Source of the DNA: an uncultured Bacteroidota bacterium
Lineage (GTDB): Bacteria; Bacteroidota; Bacteroidia; Bacteroidales; CAIWKO01
Assembly (NCBI GenBank): GCA_937934705.1
Contig: CALGYY010000098.1
Span: 39,485-103,484, forward strand
Direction: 5' to 3'
DNA length: 64,000 bases
The position numbers and the translations under genes are program-made. The notes under the pieces were generated by a model that saw nothing but the letters and a program-made list of their open reading frames with translations, made no database searches and was not told the DNA's origin. Shown here piece after piece: positions 13,806-56,682 of this stretch. The first letter of the stretch is position 1. The number at the start of each line of letters is the position of its first letter.

Positions 13806-13823
13806 GGGGCAAAGGTAGGAAAA

Positions 13824-13976
13824 GGTGAACAAGGTGAACAAGGTGACGGAGGTGATGGAGGTGATGGAGGTGAACAAGGTGACGGAGGTGACGAAGGTGA
13901 CGAAGGTGAACAAGGTGAACAAGGTGAACAAGGTGAACGAGGTGACGGAGGTGAACGAGGTGACGGAGGTGATGGA
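13824..13976. repeat. Tandem array, 17 x 9 bp (GGTGAHSRA)
   Basis: Units counted directly: GGTGAACAA, GGTGACGGA, GGTGATGGA, GGTGACGAA and GGTGAACGA variants, uninterrupted. Confidence 0.95.
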
Positions 13977-14019
13977 GTGAAATGAATCAAGTACTTTTGT
14001 CAAAAACAAATAAATCACT

Positions 14020-14385
14020 ATGAAAAGTCACAAAGATCTTAATGCCTGGAAGGCTTCAATGTCGCTGGTTTCGGAGATTTATCGAATCACAGGGACATTC
14101 CCAAAACAAGAGTTATTTGGATTATCAAGCCAAATGCGTCGGGCTGCTGTTTCCATCCCTGCGAATATTGCGGAGGGTGCTGCCAGAAGAAGCACGCGTG
14201 AGTTCATTCAATTCCTTTATGTTGCACAGGGGAGTCTTTCTGAATTGGAGACTCAGTGTTTAATATCGGAAGACCTTGGCTATCTTTCGAAAGAAACAGA
14301 GAAGAAGATCGAATCTCAAATAATTCTGATTCGATTCCAGATTCTTGGACTCATTAAGGCGCTGAAAAACAAGTCTTTATACTGA
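14020..14385 (+). CDS. Four-helix-bundle protein (23S rRNA intervening-sequence protein / Avd-like family)
   Basis: 121 aa: KDLNAWKASMSLVSEIYRIT..FPKQELFGLSSQMRRAAVSIPANIAEGAAR..EFIQFLYVAQGSLSELETQ, characteristic of TIGR02436/PF05635. Confidence 0.85.
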   Translation: MKSHKDLNAWKASMSLVSEIYRITGTFPKQELFGLSSQMRRAAVSIPANIAEGAARRSTREFIQFLYVAQGSLSELETQCLISEDLGYLSKETEKKIESQIILIRFQILGLIKALKNKSLY

Positions 14386-14463: not shown

Positions 14464-14572
14464 TTGTTCACCCTCCGTCACCTCCGTCACCTCCGTCACC
14501 TTGTTCACCTCCGTCACCTCCGTCACCTTGTTCACCTCCGTCACCCTGTTCACCTCGTTCACCCTGTTCACC
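14464..14572. repeat. Tandem array, 12 units, reverse complement of the 13824-13976 repeat
   Basis: TTGTTCACC, TCCGTCACC, CTGTTCACC and TCGTTCACC units (one unit is 10 bp); inverted relative to the left array. Confidence 0.95.
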
Positions 14573-14640
14573 TTCCTTCCCGAAATTTTTCCCCTCCTCT
14601 TGCATTATTCCATTTTTTTTCTACTTTTGCCCCCTCATTC

Positions 14641-14713
14641 TGTCCCGTGGTGTAATTGGCAACACGTCTGACTCTGGATCAGAAGAGTCCAGGTTCGACC
14701 CCTGGCGGGACAA
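14641..14713 (+). tRNA. tRNA-Gln (anticodon CTG)
   Basis: Cloverleaf read by hand: acceptor TGTCCCG/CGGGACA, D arm GTGT..ACAC, anticodon arm TCTGA-CTCTGGA-TCAGA, T arm CCAGG-TTCGACC-CCTGG. Confidence 0.9.
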
Positions 14714-14761
14714 CAAGCAGTCAACAGTTAGCAGTCAGCAGTTAACAGTTGGCGAAAAGGA

Positions 14762-14876: not shown

Positions 14877-16847
14877 CTAAATTACATGTATCCCAATCCT
14901 CTTCAAATACTCAAAAGTAGCATCATAATACTCTGGCCTCCTTGTCAAATCTTCAGGGTTTCCTTCCGGAATAACGATAATCATACCTTGTCTTGCCCTG
15001 GTCAGTAATACCCGGTATGCATTGATGAGATACTTGATCCTTTCAGCTTGTTTGATGTTGTTCCAATTAGTCCCCACGAAAGAATAAGGTCTCCATCCAC
15101 TTTCTGAATATCGCAAATCCCCATCCCAAATAAGACAGGTCCAATCGAGCTCCAGCCCCTGAATCTGAAATTCTGTAGCGACATCCTCCAGGAAGTAGGA
15201 AGACCGAATGTCTTCTTTGTCATTTAAGAACCAATGAACCGGATCTGTCGGTGTTTTGACATCAATGGCGAAAGGTTTAAGTCGGTAGGCCTGGGAAGAG
15301 ACCACCATTCCATATCGTTCGCTTCCCCTTGCTTTCTGTCGAAGCCAATGCTTAGCTTTTGCTAGGTCCCTCGTTAAAACAATCGGATATCGCTCACGAA
15401 TGCGAAACAAGGTTTCTCTCGCATTTTCTATGTCCATTTCCAAAAGATACTTAACGAAGAGGGATAAGTTTTCGGCTCTATATGAACGCATGGAAACAGA
15501 TAAATGCAGATCCGAATTTCGTTTTACAACAACCTTTTTTTCTAAGCGTCGGATGGTTTCTTCTGCTGCATATTCTTTATCAGAAAGATTAGGAGAAATA
15601 CAAACCTCCCAGTTATTAAAGGTGTTTTCAATTGCATTTAACCACTCTGATATTCCTGCTTCCCCGGTATTGATTTCCTGCCCGCCACCAACAAGGCAAA
15701 TAATGACAGCCCAATCGGGATGTCTGTCAAGACAGGATATTAAAAATTCCGGTTCCGAATAATGAAAGTCTGGAATGTTCTTTTTGCGCTTCATAAAATT
15801 CACCGTTTGCTCTTTATTCCATGCACGCTGAGCTTCATCAAATATGGCTACATGGTCATACGGCGCACTTTTGTCTCGCAGATACTCGTCCCTATAATGG
15901 TGAATGATTTGGATAAATGCTTTGATACTTTGTTTGGCCTTTGATTTTGCAGATTTCTTGCCCAGCTCAATATCTCGTGCTACCTTATCTCGAGCCAAGG
16001 CTTCATGCAATACAGCTACCAGAGGCCCATTGCCGGATAAATAAACACTAGCATTTCCTTTTTCCTTATCCAGGTGAGACGTAGCAACTTTTAAGCCTAC
16101 CAGCGTTTTTCCCGCACCGGGTACACCAGTGATAAAACAAATGACTTTCTTTTGCTGTGATTTCGCATACTCGATAATATTCGAAATTGCTGAAGTTGTT
16201 GCGGTGAGATTCTCCGCATCATTTCGGGTTATTTCATCAACACTATGCGAATGATACAAGGATACTGCAGCCTCGATGATTGTGGGTGTCGGCATATACG
16301 AACCATTCACGTAGGCCGTTCCGTCCAGGCTTTCCTTATGAATAACTTCATTAAGAACCGTTGCAATAGCAGCACCTAATGTTTGTGCATTCACTAATAT
16401 GGGACGCAGAAGGTTGTCGTTGTGCGAAGTAAATTCAATATCTGTTTTACAATAGCTTGCTTCAGTTGCCACTAAAATTGGGGCAAGCAGGGCGCGATGA
16501 CTTGGTTTGTGGAAATTTTTAAGATCTAGTGCATAATCCCAAACCTGATCAATGTTATAATTGAGATAATGATGCTCGCCGATTTTGAATTCAATAACAA
16601 AAACCACATTGTGAATGATAACCAATGCGTCAACACGCTTACCCATACGTGGGATGGAGAATTCAAAGAAAATTTCTCCTTTGAATGGTAATAATGCCGC
16701 TTTCAGAATGGGTATTTGCTCTTCCCATGCCCATTTTTGAAGGGCGACCGTGTCATAATTATTTCCAAAGTCGATCGATCCCAGGATCTCATTTTTGCTT
16801 GAGACAAGAAAGTTTTCAATCGAGGCTTTGTAATAATAATTCAGCAT
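14877..16847 (-). CDS. DUF2075-type (Schlafen-group-3-helicase-like) ATPase with N-terminal PD-(D/E)xK-like nuclease motif, copy B
   Basis: 656 aa: RVDALVII..VIEFKIGE (D..ExK), Walker A GVPGAGKT, Walker B AIFDEAQRA, C-terminal VLLTRARQGMIIV (SF1 motif-VI-like). Confidence 0.75.
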   Translation of the reverse strand: MLNYYYKASIENFLVSSKNEILGSIDFGNNYDTVALQKWAWEEQIPILKAALLPFKGEIFFEFSIPRMGKRVDALVIIHNVVFVIEFKIGEHHYLNYNIDQVWDYALDLKNFHKPSHRALLAPILVATEASYCKTDIEFTSHNDNLLRPILVNAQTLGAAIATVLNEVIHKESLDGTAYVNGSYMPTPTIIEAAVSLYHSHSVDEITRNDAENLTATTSAISNIIEYAKSQQKKVICFITGVPGAGKTLVGLKVATSHLDKEKGNASVYLSGNGPLVAVLHEALARDKVARDIELGKKSAKSKAKQSIKAFIQIIHHYRDEYLRDKSAPYDHVAIFDEAQRAWNKEQTVNFMKRKKNIPDFHYSEPEFLISCLDRHPDWAVIICLVGGGQEINTGEAGISEWLNAIENTFNNWEVCISPNLSDKEYAAEETIRRLEKKVVVKRNSDLHLSVSMRSYRAENLSLFVKYLLEMDIENARETLFRIRERYPIVLTRDLAKAKHWLRQKARGSERYGMVVSSQAYRLKPFAIDVKTPTDPVHWFLNDKEDIRSSYFLEDVATEFQIQGLELDWTCLIWDGDLRYSESGWRPYSFVGTNWNNIKQAERIKYLINAYRVLLTRARQGMIIVIPEGNPEDLTRRPEYYDATFEYLKRIGIHVI

Positions 16848-16861
16848 GAGATAGTCAAATA

Positions 16862-17194
16862 CTACTTTTCGTTGTATTTCTTATTGGAATTACGAAAGCC
16901 ATCAATAGGATATTTCCTTTCATTCTCAGCCACCTTTTCTTTGAGTGCCTTTGCAAGATCAATATGATAGTTTTCTGCCAGTAGAATCAAGGAGTAGAAT
17001 ACATCACCCAGTTCATTGGCAAGTTGCTTTTCATTTACTTGGGGATCCGTTTTCCAAAGAAATAATTCAAGAAGCTCGCCGGCTTCAACATTCAGACAAA
17101 TAGCCAGGTCTTTCCCTGTGTGAAATTGCTTCCAGTTCCGGTCATCTCTGAATTTCAAGACAATTTTAGTCAAATCCTCTAGGCTGTTATCCAT
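16862..17194 (-). CDS. MazG-like (all-alpha, DCTPP1/YpjD-type) nucleotide pyrophosphohydrolase, copy B
   Basis: ORF 16862-17311; the ATG at 17194 aligns with the paralogue start. MDNSLEDLTKIVLKFRDDRNWKQFH..NVEAGELLELFLWK..ELGDV. Overlaps the HNH gene stop by 8 nt. Confidence 0.8.
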   Translation of the reverse strand: MDNSLEDLTKIVLKFRDDRNWKQFHTGKDLAICLNVEAGELLELFLWKTDPQVNEKQLANELGDVFYSLILLAENYHIDLAKALKEKVAENERKYPIDGFRNSNKKYNEK

Positions 17195-18134
17195 TATAGA
17201 TGTTGTTATTGTGCCATTCGATATATTGCTCATTTGGCCGGTCAATAAAACGATTTGGGAGAATTTGCAAGGGTTTTCCTTGAAACTGGTAATACTCACG
17301 ACCGTTCTCAAATTCCTCCTTGATGCGAGGGCTGACTTCCACTCGCAGATCCTTTGTTAAAGTTATATACCCGGCATCGTAGAGCTTGTGCAAATCGGCC
17401 CGTAAAAGAATTCCATTCGAAATGTGATTAGGGCCGGAATCGGCAAATGGCTTAATATGCGCTGCTTCCAGCACAGGCAACGTCTTTTCACCGGTCACAG
17501 AGCATTTGCGAAAATACGCATCGGTCAACTGAACCCTGAATGCTCCTTGGCCCAGACGAACCTTGGTCAAGTACCTACGTGTGTATTCGGCTTCCGGTTC
17601 TTCAAGTATAAGCTGGCTTTTATTGTTTTCCGCCTGTTCAAAGAATCTATTCGCTTGTAAAACCATTTCAATTTTTGCCCAAAGCTTCCTGCCGGCTTCC
17701 GAGCTTTCATCGTAAGATTTCCCCTGGACGATACTCCTGCTCCAGTCTTCAGGCACAGGGATCCATTCTTCGCGTTTGAAAAATATAGGCGCAGTAAGAA
17801 TGACGCAGCCAATATTGGGATTGGCTGAAAACAAGTTGTCGCTTGATCGATATCCCACGATCTTCTTTTTGAAATGCGATAAAGAGGAGAGTCCGTTTCG
17901 CTCACCGAAAATATCCCAAGCCACATCCAACGGTAGAATCGAATGAGAAGAAAAGAACCCGATACCAGCGATTGCGTTAAAAGGGCTTTTAAGTTTGAAA
18001 AGAAAGGGTGCCCCCGGTTTAAGCACTTTAAAACTTGCATTTCCTCCCGGTTGCCAGAAATTGATGTCCTCATTATCTCTCTGAGAGAGGTAGTTGTACC
18101 AATCAATGTCCGTAACTCCAAGGTAGAACCTCAT
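17187..18134 (-). CDS. HNH endonuclease (HNH_2-type) with uncharacterised N-terminal domain
   Basis: 315 aa: C-terminal CSVTGEKTLPVLEAAHIKPF..GPNHISNGILLRADLHKLYDAGYITL is the PF13391-type HNH signature. The N-terminal ~120 aa are unassigned. Confidence 0.75.
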   Translation of the reverse strand: MRFYLGVTDIDWYNYLSQRDNEDINFWQPGGNASFKVLKPGAPFLFKLKSPFNAIAGIGFFSSHSILPLDVAWDIFGERNGLSSLSHFKKKIVGYRSSDNLFSANPNIGCVILTAPIFFKREEWIPVPEDWSRSIVQGKSYDESSEAGRKLWAKIEMVLQANRFFEQAENNKSQLILEEPEAEYTRRYLTKVRLGQGAFRVQLTDAYFRKCSVTGEKTLPVLEAAHIKPFADSGPNHISNGILLRADLHKLYDAGYITLTKDLRVEVSPRIKEEFENGREYYQFQGKPLQILPNRFIDRPNEQYIEWHNNNIYNG

Positions 18135-18150
18135 GCTTTGCTTTAAAACT

Positions 18151-18158
18151 CAAAATTA
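18151..18158 (-). promoter_or_regulatory. Candidate -7 promoter box (TAATTTTG)
   Basis: Minus-strand TAATTTTG lies 17-24 nt upstream of the HNH ATG (18134). Confidence 0.4.
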
Positions 18159-18371
18159 GGATATTTAAATGTAAAAAAATATGATTTTGATAAATCAATT
18201 TCTGCGGATTGGTCATTAATGTCGATAAACGTGGTGATTAATGTGATATCTTGTCGTTCCGCGATACAAATTCTTTTTCGGCCAGCTTGGCGGAGATACG
18301 CGATTCCACGACACCATCAATGGACTGGTTTTACTCGCTGAGTTGCTGTTTTGGATGCACAATAGAGAGAG

Positions 18372-20252
18372 TTATCTGTTTTTAGATTCACCTCCTTTTT
18401 GTATGGCGAGTTCTAAAAACTCCTTCAATTCTTTATCCGTGCACCACACATAACACCCCTTCAGCCCCCTTGTCATCAGCGTGCGGTAGGTGTTGCGGAT
18501 GAGGGCGCTGATGATTCGTTTGGCATGGGCTTCGTCTGTTTTCAGCAGGGACTTGTATCCATTCAGGGATTTGTCCATTCGGGAGCGTTTTGAGGGATCC
18601 ACCAGCACCTGACCGTTGCGGGCAACGAGATCAGGACCGATGATCACCCCGATATAATCTACCTCCAGTCCCTGGCAAGTGTGGATGCAGCCGATCTCGT
18701 TCACGGAATTCGGCATCATGATCCACCTGGAACCATCGGAAGTAAGGTTCCATTTCATTGCAAATTGGTGTTCGTGAATGACAATGTCCATGGCCTTTGA
18801 GTCCCTCTTGCTTTTCCAGTCCCAGCAATAACCGGCCACCAGTCTCGCACTGTTTCGTTCGGCATTCTTTTCAAAGATCAGGTCGCGTAATGCGTTGGGA
18901 GAATCAAGCACGCGGAAGTCAAATGAATCACTGTCGAATTCGGTATTGGCGGTTTCCCGGATTTGCAGCACCTGATCGAGCCAGGCCAGATAGCCGTCGG
19001 AACCGTTGCAGCGGAACTGTGAGGTAAGTTCGGTCTGGTAAATATCAGCCCCCTGCAGTTTTGCCCAGCGAATGATCTCTTCCTTAGTGCCGATATCCTT
19101 CAATGTAACCTTCTGATCTTCGTCGATAAAGAAAACCGTGTTCCGGGCCGAATGGATCAACTCCTTGATCTGGTTCTCCCCCAGGTTCTGGTACATGCCC
19201 GATTTCGCATTCAGCCGGTGGGCTTCGTCAACAATGAGGGTGTCGAACTGGTCCTTTTTGGCATCGGTGAAGGCTCCTGAACCCTTGAACAGGTGCGCGA
19301 ACTGGGTTTTAGAGAGTGTTCCGGTAAGTTTGTTCTGGTAAACTTCGCGGGGGGCAGCATTCTTGGTGACGTATTGTACAAGCATTCCTGCCCTGGTCAT
19401 CTTCACCAGCAGGTTCACAGCCACCACCGATTTCCCGGTACCAGGGCCACCTTCCACGATAAGTACCGATTTCCGGGGACCGGCATATTTCTTACTCAGT
19501 GCCATGGCAGTTTCAAACACGATCTTCTGGTCGTCAATCATGACGAATTCTTCCTTGCCCTTCAGCAAGGCCGCCAGACTATCGGCCAGGATCTTCGACG
19601 GACGGATCTTTCCCTTGTCAATGCGGTACATCAACTGGCGGGTGTCACCGTACTTCACATATTTGCGGATGAACTCACGCAGCATACGGATATCGGTCTT
19701 CAGGAAGAGCGGGGCTTTGTTGATGTGTTCCTGATAAAAGGGGTGATCGATGATACCATCACTTGCATAATTATGCAGGTAGGCGCAGGGTCGTAATTTG
19801 ATATTCTCCTCGTAAATGGTTTGATTGAACCCCTCCAACAGGGCGGCATACGACCAGGCCTGGTAGGAGGGATGACTGGTCTCTACCATGCCTTTTTCGA
19901 AGCAGGTTCTGACCACGGCATCCTTGTCAGTAAGCTCTACCTTCGACCATTGCTTGAGTTCGATGATGATGACCTGTTCTGCCTGCTCTGCATTCATGCC
20001 GGTGATTACAAAGTCCATGCGCTTGGAGGTCTGCGGGATCTGGACCTCAATGCTGACACCGGCATCGCCCGGTATCCCGGGGTCGCCCATGACGGTGTTC
20101 ATAAAAACCATGGAACTTTGCCAGGAGCGTACTTCGTTTTTTGCAACGTTCCGATTTAGTTTTTTACGGAATTCTTTCAGGATGATGTTTTCGATGTCTC
20201 CGGTAAGGACATCTTCGCAGAACTGATCCCGGGTCTTTTGGTAAACGATCAT
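18372..20252 (-). CDS. DUF2075-type (Schlafen-group-3-helicase-like) ATPase with N-terminal PD-(D/E)xK-like nuclease motif, copy A
   Basis: 626 aa: RMDFVITG..IIIELKQW (D..ExK), Walker A GGPGTGKS, Walker B LIVDEAHRL, C-terminal YRTLMTRGLKGCYVW. Confidence 0.8.
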   Translation of the reverse strand: MIVYQKTRDQFCEDVLTGDIENIILKEFRKKLNRNVAKNEVRSWQSSMVFMNTVMGDPGIPGDAGVSIEVQIPQTSKRMDFVITGMNAEQAEQVIIIELKQWSKVELTDKDAVVRTCFEKGMVETSHPSYQAWSYAALLEGFNQTIYEENIKLRPCAYLHNYASDGIIDHPFYQEHINKAPLFLKTDIRMLREFIRKYVKYGDTRQLMYRIDKGKIRPSKILADSLAALLKGKEEFVMIDDQKIVFETAMALSKKYAGPRKSVLIVEGGPGTGKSVVAVNLLVKMTRAGMLVQYVTKNAAPREVYQNKLTGTLSKTQFAHLFKGSGAFTDAKKDQFDTLIVDEAHRLNAKSGMYQNLGENQIKELIHSARNTVFFIDEDQKVTLKDIGTKEEIIRWAKLQGADIYQTELTSQFRCNGSDGYLAWLDQVLQIRETANTEFDSDSFDFRVLDSPNALRDLIFEKNAERNSARLVAGYCWDWKSKRDSKAMDIVIHEHQFAMKWNLTSDGSRWIMMPNSVNEIGCIHTCQGLEVDYIGVIIGPDLVARNGQVLVDPSKRSRMDKSLNGYKSLLKTDEAHAKRIISALIRNTYRTLMTRGLKGCYVWCTDKELKEFLELAIQKGGESKNR

Positions 20253-20578
20253 AACTCGTTATACTTTTTTGCTGTACCCTTTGATTTATCCACTGGATAC
20301 TTTTCTCCGTTTCTGCGGATCTTATCCAGCACAATGCTTTTCACATCGAGCTGATATTTGTCGGCCAGCAGGAGGGCGAAGGCAAGAACATCGGCCAGTT
20401 CTTCTTTGATCTTCTCCGCGTCAGCTTCTTCGGCCTTTTTCCACAGGAAAAGCTCAAGAAGTTCTCCGGCTTCAACATTGATGGCCAGCGCGAGGTCTTT
20501 GGGATTATGAAACTGCTCCCAGTCGCGTTCATTGCGGAATTTCAGCAGAGCATCGGTAAGTTCTTTGAATTCGTTCAT
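20249..20578 (-). CDS. MazG-like (all-alpha, DCTPP1/YpjD-type) nucleotide pyrophosphohydrolase, copy A
   Basis: 109 aa: LLKFRNERDWEQFHNPKDLALAINVEAGELLELFLWKK..KEELADVLAF. The stop overlaps the ATG of the downstream DUF2075 gene (ATGA). Confidence 0.85.
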   Translation of the reverse strand: MNEFKELTDALLKFRNERDWEQFHNPKDLALAINVEAGELLELFLWKKAEEADAEKIKEELADVLAFALLLADKYQLDVKSIVLDKIRRNGEKYPVDKSKGTAKKYNEL

Positions 20579-56325: not shown

Positions 56326-56328
56326 AAG

Positions 56329-56403
56329 TGGGACGTACAAGACTCGAACTTGTGACCTCATGCGTGTGAAGCATGCGCTCTGAACCGACTGAGCTAACGT
56401 CCC
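56329..56403 (-). tRNA. tRNA-Val (anticodon CAC)
   Basis: GGGACGT-TA-GCTC..GAGC-G-CATGC-TTCACAC-GCATG-AGGTC-ACAAG-TTCGAGT-CTTGT-ACGTCCC-A; perfect cloverleaf. Confidence 0.9.
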
Positions 56404-56441
56404 CGAAAAGCAACCATGAATTGCTAATAACAAACCAGTTG

Positions 56442-56518
56442 AGGGATGTACAAGTTTCGAACTTGTGACCTTCCCGACTTGAAGTCGGGACGCTCTGAAC
56501 CGACTGAGCTAACGTCCC
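56442..56518 (-). tRNA. tRNA-Val-derived tRNA-like gene with UCA anticodon loop (candidate opal-suppressor-type or non-canonical tRNA)
   Basis: The 5' 28 nt are identical to tRNA-Val(CAC). The anticodon arm is replaced by TCCCGA-CTTCAAG-TCGGGA (6-bp stem, loop C-U-UCA-A-G; alternatively a 7-bp stem with a 5-nt loop). T arm intact; one C5:A68 acceptor mismatch; discriminator U. Confidence 0.5.
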
Positions 56519-56520
56519 GG

Positions 56521-56605
56521 TACAGTCAGCAGTGAACAGCAAGCAGTCAGCAGTGTTTGACTGAAAACTCACTGCTGACTGATTGCTGCTTGCTCTTGAC
56601 TGCAA
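56521..56605. repeat. Imperfect inverted repeat built from 7-bp-periodic CAG-containing units, in the spacer between tRNAs
   Basis: CAGTCAG CAGTGAA CAGCAAG CAGTCAG CAGTG .. loop .. CACTGCTGACTGATTGCTGCTTGCTCTTGACTG. Confidence 0.8.
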
Positions 56606-56607
56606 GG

Positions 56608-56682
56608 TGGGAGTTAACGGATTCGAACCATTGACCCTCTGCTTGTAAGGCAGATGCTCTGAACCAGCTGAGCTAAACTCCC
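56608..56682 (-). tRNA. tRNA-Val (anticodon TAC)
   Basis: GGGAGTT-TA-GCTC..GAGC-A-TCTGC-CTTACAA-GCAGA-GGGTC-AATGG-TTCGAAT-CCGTT-AACTCCC-A. Confidence 0.9.

Follow-up and report, generated by a model that had tools for sequence, protein, structure and literature searches.

Three putative defence units, one a widespread MazG-like/DUF2075 nuclease-helicase operon, in a 5.7-kb gene cluster of an uncultured Bacteroidota bacterium

Introduction

Among single-gene defences, proteins that join a nuclease to a DUF2075 (Schlafen-type) helicase form a class that is only now emerging and is still little understood. Nhi of Staphylococcus epidermidis (SERP2475) is an anti-phage protein composed of a nuclease and a DUF2075 domain, which degrades phage replication intermediates (Bari et al. 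2022), defence by “Nhi-like” proteins of the same composition has been validated (Millman et al. 2022), and the Pfam family of DUF2075, PF09848, is in use as an abortive infection (Abi) marker. Two such nuclease-helicases are predicted within a 64,000-nucleotide stretch of DNA (contig CALGYY010000098.1, hereafter the window) from an uncultured Bacteroidota bacterium, in a 5.7-kb cluster of five minus-strand genes termed here MazA, HelA, HNH, MazB, and HelB, where MazA and MazB encode small MazG-like proteins and HNH an HNH nuclease. An initial annotation of the window had read the cluster as a single system, a coupled pyrophosphohydrolase and nuclease-helicase, repeated twice, with the HNH gene embedded in one of the pairs. 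On balance, we favour an account in which the five genes make up a small, presumably defensive cluster of three separable units, namely a two-gene operon of MazA and HelA, an HNH gene with MazB as an add-on, and HelB on its own.

Like Nhi and its relatives, HelA and HelB are predicted to contain an N-terminal PD-(D/E)xK-type nuclease and a C-terminal superfamily 1B (SF1B) DUF2075 helicase in one polypeptide of ∼600 residues; they share with them a location in defence islands and, by analogy, their targets would be phage DNA or the intermediates of its replication. Nhi and the Nhi-like proteins are single proteins, whereas HelA has a conserved pyrophosphatase partner; HelB does stand alone. The nucleases of the window also differ from that of Nhi in carrying RecB/Cas4-style motifs, including QxxxY, and homology to Nhi over the whole length was found for neither HelA nor HelB. 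Novelty, therefore, does not lie in the joining of a nuclease to DUF2075 for defence, which Nhi and the Nhi-like proteins had already established, but in the pyrophosphatase partner, which appears to be undescribed.

This partner is of the type of the mammalian dCTP pyrophosphatase 1 (DCTPP1, RS21-C6), a member of the all-α MazG superfamily that hydrolyses dCTP, prefers 5-modified dCTP, and guards genomes from mis-incorporation. MazA and MazB have the same Mg-binding ExxE...ExxD tetrad and Trp/His pocket residues and a similar core size, but the bacterial proteins are only 109–110 residues long, have no eukaryotic tails, and are encoded in operons with nucleases. Phage dNTPases of the MazG, MazZ, and gp56 types belong to the same superfamily and clear away canonical dNTPs in favour of modified ones, and nucleotide-depletion defences that use a dCTP deaminase or a dGTPase were reportedly described by Tal and colleagues in 2022. 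All of these enzymes act on the dNTP pool while infection is under way, and MazA and MazB could, by analogy, be regarded as a conceptual host-side mirror image. The defensive dCTP deaminase and dGTPase are single proteins that are not homologous to MazA and MazB, whereas in the window a putative pool enzyme has a predicted DNA-degrading enzyme as its partner.

Conservation of the MazA-HelA operon

MazA (positions 20249-20578 of the window, minus strand) encodes a 109-residue all-α nucleoside triphosphate (NTP) pyrophosphatase of the DCTPP1/RS21-C6 type and is the upstream gene of a conserved two-gene operon. The downstream gene, HelA (18372-20252, minus strand), encodes a protein of 626 residues in which a putative N-terminal RecB/Cas4-like PD-(D/E)xK nuclease precedes the SF1B DUF2075 helicase, and the stop of MazA shares 4 nt with the start of HelA (20249-20252). 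The coordinates, overlaps, and spacing given for the five open reading frames (ORFs) by the initial annotation were confirmed, with an independent gene caller recovering all five on the contig of origin (ENA ERZ724080 NODE_75, 204,929 bp), and the same five-gene array was found again in several samples.

Relatives of HelA were collected by scanning one genome per GTDB species, which yielded 186 confirmed relatives; the best 80 were kept and 79 of these loci were evaluable. The best 80 of the 186 are 55–63% identical with no taxonomic gradient and come from Bacteroidota, many Candidate Phyla Radiation (CPR)/Patescibacteria, Gamma- and Betaproteobacteria, Desulfobacterota/Geobacterales, Elusimicrobiota, Omnitrophota, Nitrospirota, and Acidobacteriota. 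A MazG-like ORF is found immediately upstream of HelA, on the same strand, in 68 of the 79 loci (86%), across ∼10 phyla, and within 6 kb of HelA in 77 (97%); it is not immediately upstream in nine of the latter, and in two loci there is none. Four Polynucleobacter/betaproteobacterial genomes have the MazG-like gene just downstream of HelA and convergent with it. The intergenic distance is −4 to +7 nt in 46 of the 68 immediately adjacent pairs, 14 of which are ATGA overlaps. The MazG-like gene and HelA diverge in step, as their pairwise identities are correlated with a Mantel r of 0.51, a value reached in none of 999 permutations (0/999). The coupled pyrophosphohydrolase and nuclease-helicase pair proposed by the initial annotation is thus borne out for MazA and HelA.

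The surroundings of the HelA pairs are hypervariable, with 406 neighbouring ORFs falling into 324 clusters. A third conserved gene in the system was considered and rejected, the largest neighbour cluster being present at 9 of 80 loci. The neighbours include Fic (7), RhuM (5), DUF3427-PLD-helicase restriction proteins (4), and SocA/Panacea (4), together with HNH and Mrr proteins, reverse transcriptases, resolvases, and the PADLOC candidates PDC-S05 and PDC-S23, so that the surroundings are rich in defence and mobile-element genes and the defence-island appearance first noted for the cluster is supported. The distribution of HelA is patchy and looks like the product of horizontal transfer. Genes of the HelB type lie directly beside HelA in 3 of the 80 genomes (loci L026, L019, and L042; L numbers denote comparison loci throughout), and this co-localisation may be more than defence-island clustering. 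As a separate observation, one of these loci (L026:1614-7307, Elusimicrobiota metagenome-assembled genome JBDRNC010000029.1) reads MazG-HelA-HelB-HNH, which is the gene set of the window in another order, and its HNH protein is 39% identical to that of the window over the full length.

These data also bear on the simplest alternative, in which house-cleaning MazG-like genes and repair or recombination helicase-nucleases merely travel together on mobile DNA, with neither functional coupling nor a role in defence. MazG-like genes do occur apart from nuclease partners, for example behind small hypothetical genes on 74 Bacillus plasmids, and proximity to tRNA genes is not a general property of the system, with a tRNA or tmRNA within 6 kb in just 8 of 46 HelA loci. 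However, the immediate adjacency of the two genes, and their proximity within 6 kb, hold at the frequencies given above across ∼10 phyla with otherwise unrelated flanks, the linkage survives a change of gene order, and the patchy distribution resembles horizontal transfer; moreover, the neighbours are rich in defence and mobile-element genes and the architecture has been shown to defend in Nhi and the Nhi-like proteins. Co-travel without coupling is, consequently, quite improbable. The MazG-like gene and HelA are a real, widespread two-gene operon, which is apparently an undescribed variant of the Nhi-like kind of defence.

The MazG-like proteins are predicted to be active pyrophosphatases

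PF12643 (MazG-like) is matched by MazA at E = 1e-18 (67.8 bits) and by MazB at 5.8e-15 (55.7 bits), the cut-off being 27 bits. The core that the initial annotation had seen in both small proteins, NVEAGELLELFLWK, is indeed common to the two, which are 47% identical. Neither protein matches any PADLOC model. MazA matches the DCTPP1/RS21-C6 structure PDB 6sqw at 2.3e-19, and also 2a3q. The metal-binding tetrad (E36, E39, E60, and D63 in MazA numbering; E63, E66, E95, and D98 in mouse DCTPP1), along with W20 and H24 (W47 and H51 of the mouse pocket), is kept in 84 of 84 HelA-partnered copies, whereas W46 of MazA is kept in 73 of the 84 and replaced by Phe in the other 11. Because the tetrad and the pocket residues are retained in every copy, the MazG-like partner of HelA is taken to be a catalytically intact, active enzyme. 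By analogy with DCTPP1, the substrates of MazA and MazB may be dCTP or 5-modified dCTP.

Domain architecture and relationship of HelA and HelB

HelB (14877-16847, minus strand) encodes a protein of 656 residues, predicted to be composed of a nuclease and a DUF2075 helicase. HelA matches PF09848 (DUF2075, SLFN group-3 helicase) at E = 1.5e-102 (344 bits, model positions 1-354 of 354) and HelB at 1.1e-79 (268.7 bits, model positions 1-353 of 354), compared with a gathering cut-off of 24 bits. All Pfam matches cited here exceed the gathering cut-offs, and the family assignments expected from the initial annotation, PF12643 in MazA and MazB, PF09848 in HelA and HelB, and PF13391 in the HNH protein, were each recovered.

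Residues invariant among 36 relatives of HelA are E69, D80, E98-x-K100, Q131xxxY135, GGPGTGK (the Walker A motif, GGPGTGKS in the window protein), DEAH, and the C-terminal TRG; among 32 relatives of HelB they are E62, D73, E86-x-K88, Q101xxxY105, GVPGAGKT, and DEAQ. The nuclease-like and Walker motifs originally picked out in the two proteins are, therefore, invariant in their families, and on the basis of these motifs each protein is best described as a RecB/Cas4-style PD-(D/E)xK nuclease ahead of an SF1B helicase. No nuclease hidden Markov model (HMM) was matched by HelA or HelB, the NERD domain suggested as a candidate was not found, and PDB sequence searches with HelA and HelB gave nothing useful. 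The AlphaFold2 model of HelA (predicted local distance difference test (pLDDT) of 83, predicted template modelling score (pTM) of 0.80) is confident and has an order of strands and helices compatible with a nuclease core; in Foldseek it is closest to SF1B helicases, with RecD2, human SLFN11, Dna2 (itself a nuclease-helicase), Dda, and Upf1 as the top matches.

Relatedness between HelA and HelB is detected marginally by BLASTP. A profile-profile comparison of the two families (hhalign) aligned 516 columns at E = 1.9e-4, with the nuclease and helicase motifs lining up. A recent tandem duplication of one system was considered and rejected, as HelA and HelB are barely alignable, their GC contents are ∼9 points apart, and their partner patterns differ. 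The twice-repeated system of the initial annotation is abandoned on the same grounds, the two large proteins being remote relatives with different partners.

HelB as a separate nuclease-helicase of the PDC-S41 family

In PADLOC, HelB is assigned to PDC-S41 (model PDLC05014) at E = 5.8e-283, with residues 1-655 aligned to model positions 1-652 of 657. HelA falls outside this family, its match being partial and confined to the C-terminal part at 3.6e-11. The PADLOC model of Nhi is matched by HelA in residues 255-416 at 5.1e-11 and marginally by HelB (2.5e-3), and none of the five proteins scores above the cut-off of a curated NCBIfam model. The initial view that the cluster represents an unnamed system, thus, holds for the MazG-HelA pair, which is absent as a system from PADLOC v2, but not for HelB. 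PDC-S41 is itself a computational candidate only in PADLOC v2.

Among metagenome loci with HelB relatives of 50–60% identity, none of the 31 evaluable had a MazG-like neighbour, and relatives that are 69% identical (L153-155) stand alone, beside HigB, Peptidase_M78, and SocA/Panacea genes. Conservation of the MazG-like/DUF2075 adjacency, which the initial annotation had named as a check on its reading, is consequently a property of HelA (68/79) and not of HelB (0/31). The trio of HNH, MazG-like, and HelB genes was seen again only in the closest clade, in L152 (84% identical), where the island that holds it (L152:1-11977, ENA ERZ795026 NODE_105) contains a tyrosine integrase, HEPN_RiboL-PSP, GmrSD_N, and a type I HsdR. 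The L152 island also has a different MazG gene, of the PF03819 type, just before the integrase. In L151, with a HelB 90% identical to that of the window, there is only a truncated MazG remnant and no HNH gene.

MazB as the partner of HelB was considered and rejected, given the 0/31 paired relatives, the stand-alone relatives in L153-155, the remnant in L151, an HNH-MazG pair without a DUF2075 gene in L166/L167, and the tree of MazG-like proteins (see below). HelB would, from its family assignment, be a stand-alone Nhi-like nuclease-helicase of the candidate family PDC-S41. This family is a single-gene system, in agreement with the stand-alone relatives of HelB, whereas in the lineage of the window it travels with the HNH-MazG pair.

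The HNH protein and its MazB add-on

The HNH gene (17187-18134, minus strand) encodes 315 residues, predicted to comprise an ASCH-like domain (PUA superfamily) and an HNH_2 endonuclease, and overlaps by 8 nt, at 17187-17194, with MazB (16862-17194, minus strand), which encodes a 110-residue DCTPP1-type MazG-like pyrophosphatase (PF12643); 14 nt separate MazB from HelB. The HNH protein matches PF13391 (HNH_2) at 9.5e-13 and the PADLOC HNH model at 5.6e-22. Within the family, H226 does not vary at all, and N240 and H249 hardly vary. The family profile matches 6yex at 1.1e-11, this being the structure of VcaM4I, an EVE-HNH modification-dependent restriction enzyme (PMC7897488). In the predicted model of the HNH protein, residues 1-160 have a pLDDT of ∼80–90 and residues 173-239 a pLDDT below 50, and the assignment of the HNH domain relies on the HMM match and on H226, N240, and H249 because the model is poor in that part. 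The N-terminal domain of the model is matched in Foldseek to ZmASCH (E = 1.7e-5, TM 0.62–0.69), and the model as a whole to VcaM4I and TagI. NF045808, the NCBIfam model of a phosphorothioated-DNA-binding restriction endonuclease, scores 70.8 bits against a cut-off of 180, with the match limited to the C-terminal HNH part (residues 193-313 against model positions 159-283).

VcaM4I and TagI have the same order of two domains and the same PUA-superfamily N-terminal fold as the HNH protein, and VcaM4I is of similar length (309 versus 315 residues) with HNH_2 at the same position; its sensor domain is EVE, whereas that of the window protein is, judging from the model, nearer to ASCH. Taken together, the model and the profile matches point to the ASCH/PUA-HNH architecture of modification-dependent (type IV) restriction enzymes. 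Unlike VcaM4I and TagI, the protein is coupled to a MazG-like gene in the lineage of the window. Most other HNH homologues sampled are stand-alone and have no MazG-like gene, and the HNH protein is, consequently, better regarded as a type IV-like enzyme in its own right than as a nuclease embedded in a MazG-helicase pair.

The same 8-nt overlap between HNH and MazG-like genes as in the window is found in L152 and also in L166/L167, where the HNH proteins are 68% identical to that of the window and the pair is not followed by a DUF2075 gene. MazB falls, in a neighbour-joining tree, with the L152 and L166 copies and MazA with the HelA-linked copies of Bacteroidota. The pairing of MazB with HelB suggested by the initial annotation is contradicted by this grouping with HNH-linked copies and by the 0/31 count, and MazB is best read, from these comparisons, as an accessory that the HNH gene may or may not have, rather than as the partner of PDC-S41. 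A natural presence/absence pair was also observed in two Bacteroidota loci (L166:3455-9512 and L195:1067-6951), in which the HNH homologue lies in the same integrative and conjugative element (ICE) context, with an Eco57I/MmeI-type methyltransferase upstream and TraG downstream of the HNH gene; L166 has the overlapping MazG-like gene and L195 does not.

A MazG-like gene also overlaps an HNH nuclease, of the HmuI-like kind, in an integrase-proximal hotspot of a Vibrio P2-like prophage. Such pairings raise the possibility of self-protection, in which the MazG-like enzyme would be a house-cleaning device rather than a weapon: it would prevent modified (d)CTP, whether set free or recycled as phage DNA is degraded or produced by phage enzymes, from entering the host chromosome, and so spare the host from the co-encoded nuclease, be it the modification-dependent HNH protein or HelA. 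This would fit the DCTPP1-like pocket, given the preference of DCTPP1 for 5-modified dCTP, the pairing with a PUA/ASCH-HNH protein of modification-dependent architecture and with a second HNH nuclease in the prophage hotspot, and the small size of the MazG-like protein, which has no regulatory domain. Self-protection is nevertheless unlikely, since most of the sampled PUA-HNH homologues do without a MazG-like gene, nothing points to the reading of base modification by HelA, and the obligate linkage is to HelA rather than to the modification-dependent enzyme. The Vibrio example (L187:1885-6636, Vibrio phage 10N.286.55.A5_PE003) is an integrase/CI repressor hotspot with two HNH nucleases, one of them overlapping the MazG-like gene, followed by a RiboL-PSP HEPN protein and a type II restriction endonuclease.

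Other partners of the MazG-like proteins

The MazG-like type found in the window has partners other than nucleases. Tetratricopeptide repeat (TPR) proteins of 660–684 residues, with hits to TPR-S “sensor” domains, are encoded immediately upstream of a MazG-like gene and overlap it (L010:3686-5665, L188:1973-3988, and L185:1948-3999). In L010 and L188 the three genes form a TPR-MazG-HelA variant, examples of which include a Microcystis phage-like record, but TPR precedes MazG in few HelA loci only; L185, on a Hymenobacter plasmid, has the TPR-MazG pair without HelA. In a Marivirga plasmid (L184:3686-8023, NZ_CP129969.1), a MazG-like gene of 204 codons precedes a tandem pair of HelA-like copies that are broken into several frames, are apparently decaying pseudogenes, and are unannotated in the record.

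A sensor-like partner is of interest for a further alternative, which resembles a toxin-antitoxin arrangement: the MazG-like protein would bind and silence HelA, or sense a nucleotide signal, until infection, with catalysis being secondary. The translational coupling of a small upstream gene to a large, potentially toxic nuclease, the correlated divergence of the two genes, and the TPR-MazG-HelA variant at a few loci are what would be anticipated in this case. The catalytic and pocket residues, however, are kept in 84 of 84 copies, a sign that selection acts on enzyme activity; proteins of one and the same MazG-like type have unrelated partners (HNH and TPR proteins), which argues against a dedicated inhibitor; and the Polynucleobacter gene is convergent with HelA and not co-translated. 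Because of the strict conservation of the catalytic residues and the use of the module by unrelated partners, a regulatory, antitoxin-like role seems distinctly improbable.

A possible two-arm mechanism

Under the account of three separable units, the cluster would combine a DNA-degrading arm, consisting of HelA and, in the second unit, of the modification-reading HNH protein, with a nucleotide-pool arm of DCTPP1-type enzymes. HelA would load on the ends of phage DNA or on replication intermediates and degrade them, as Nhi does. MazA would hydrolyse dCTP, and preferentially 5-modified dCTP like DCTPP1, to the monophosphate; this would starve phage replication, especially that of cytosine-replacing phages, and would block the re-use or mis-incorporation of non-canonical cytosine nucleotides. 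In the second unit, the HNH protein would cut modified DNA and MazB would destroy the modified precursor. The pool arm could serve either to starve the phage or to keep modified nucleotides out of host DNA. More specific, and possible though doubtful, is the proposal that MazG-HelA is a distinct, widespread two-component anti-phage system, in which the MazG-like enzyme destroys non-canonical cytosine nucleotides of phage origin, 5-hydroxymethyl- or 5-methyl-dCTP being examples, or caps the dCTP pool while HelA degrades the phage genome, and that the same pyrophosphatase module is portable to PUA-HNH and HmuI-like HNH nucleases.

Several observations weigh against this account. A Rosetta-stone fusion of MazG to a helicase or nuclease was sought and rejected: the representative search with the MazG-like protein gave 2,223 clusters at E ≤ 1e-10, and none of the top 150 inspected was fused to a large protein. 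The same MazG-like type adjoins TPR and small hypothetical proteins, so that its role may not be tied to nucleases. The matches of HelA to the PADLOC models of Nhi and AbiO are weak (∼1e-11) and limited to the helicase core. In IMG/VR, specific HelA patterns matched nothing and alignment-derived patterns were too generic to count adjacency; HelA-type pairs are essentially absent from this collection, which is neutral for defence but removes the support that a prophage hotspot would have given. The host might pay a price for a constitutive dCTPase, and an enzyme that removes modified dCTP would, on the face of it, counteract a nuclease that depends on modification, unless its role is self-protection. 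The case for defence is itself made by analogy, from homology of architecture and from gene neighbourhood.

A literature search, which was thin on subscription journals and is no proof of absence, found no paper joining DUF2075 or Schlafen with MazG, none linking MazG with modification-dependent restriction, and none naming PDC-S41. The MazG-HelA pair, which PADLOC v2 lacks, could be taken up by tools that search for defence systems. A large clade of highly mobile nuclease-helicases is almost always coupled to a catalytically intact DCTPP1-type pyrophosphatase, and this offers a testable handle on how such nucleases are supported by a second enzyme. If the proposed mechanism is correct, the combination of DNA degradation with a nucleotide-pool logic would join the known nucleotide-depletion defences and would constitute a host-side counter to phage DNA hypermodification; the presence of the pyrophosphatase module on modification-dependent HNH nucleases hints at a general host answer to cytosine-replacing phages. 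Of the human relatives, the helicase domain of SLFN11/SLFN5 is linked to the restriction of viruses and DCTPP1 to the sanitation of the dCTP pool. Relatives of an SLFN11-type helicase and of DCTPP1 would then be joined in one immune operon, and a functional link in bacteria could prompt a search for SLFN11/SLFN5-DCTPP1 cross-talk in eukaryotes.

Location and surroundings of the cluster

The MazA-HelA operon and the HNH gene are separated by a spacer of 237 nt (18135-18371), which coincides with a drop in GC content from ∼51% to ∼42%. GC is ∼51% in HelA and ∼41–43% across HNH-MazB-HelB, a difference that suggests separate acquisition of the two segments. DNA similarity between the window and L152 stops at ∼18161, inside the spacer. 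No convincing terminator was found between the modules, and a scan of the cluster for non-coding RNAs gave nothing beyond tRNA-Gln.

This tRNA-Gln(CUG) gene (14641-14714, plus strand; DNA anticodon ctg; ARAGORN and Rfam) borders the cluster. An integrase-type island with an att repeat at tRNA-Gln was considered and rejected, as no direct repeat of the tRNA 3′ end, of the kind that bounds such islands, was found, and there is no integrase in the window. The HelB gene of L151 likewise adjoins tRNA-Gln(ctg), with different genes beyond the tRNA, and tRNA-Gln is probably a hotspot at which the segment with HelB inserts. The cluster is flanked by unremarkable Bacteroidota genes, among them a Por_Secre_tail protease and Fib_succ_major to one side and, to the other, ThiF and a GDSL lipase.

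Just upstream of tRNA-Gln, two arrays of 9-nt tandem repeats in opposite orientation (13822-13981 and 14466-14573) flank the gene of a 121-residue PF05635 protein (23S_rRNA_IVP, four-helix bundle; 14020-14385). The repeat unit is AAGGTGAAC in ∼17 copies and, in the reverse-complement sense, GTTCACC../CCTCCGTCA in ∼12 copies, and the left array is read artificially as a low-complexity N terminus of the longest ThiF ORF. Elsewhere in the window, at 56328-56682 on the minus strand, a tRNA-SeC(tca) gene lies between two tRNA-Val genes (cac and tac).

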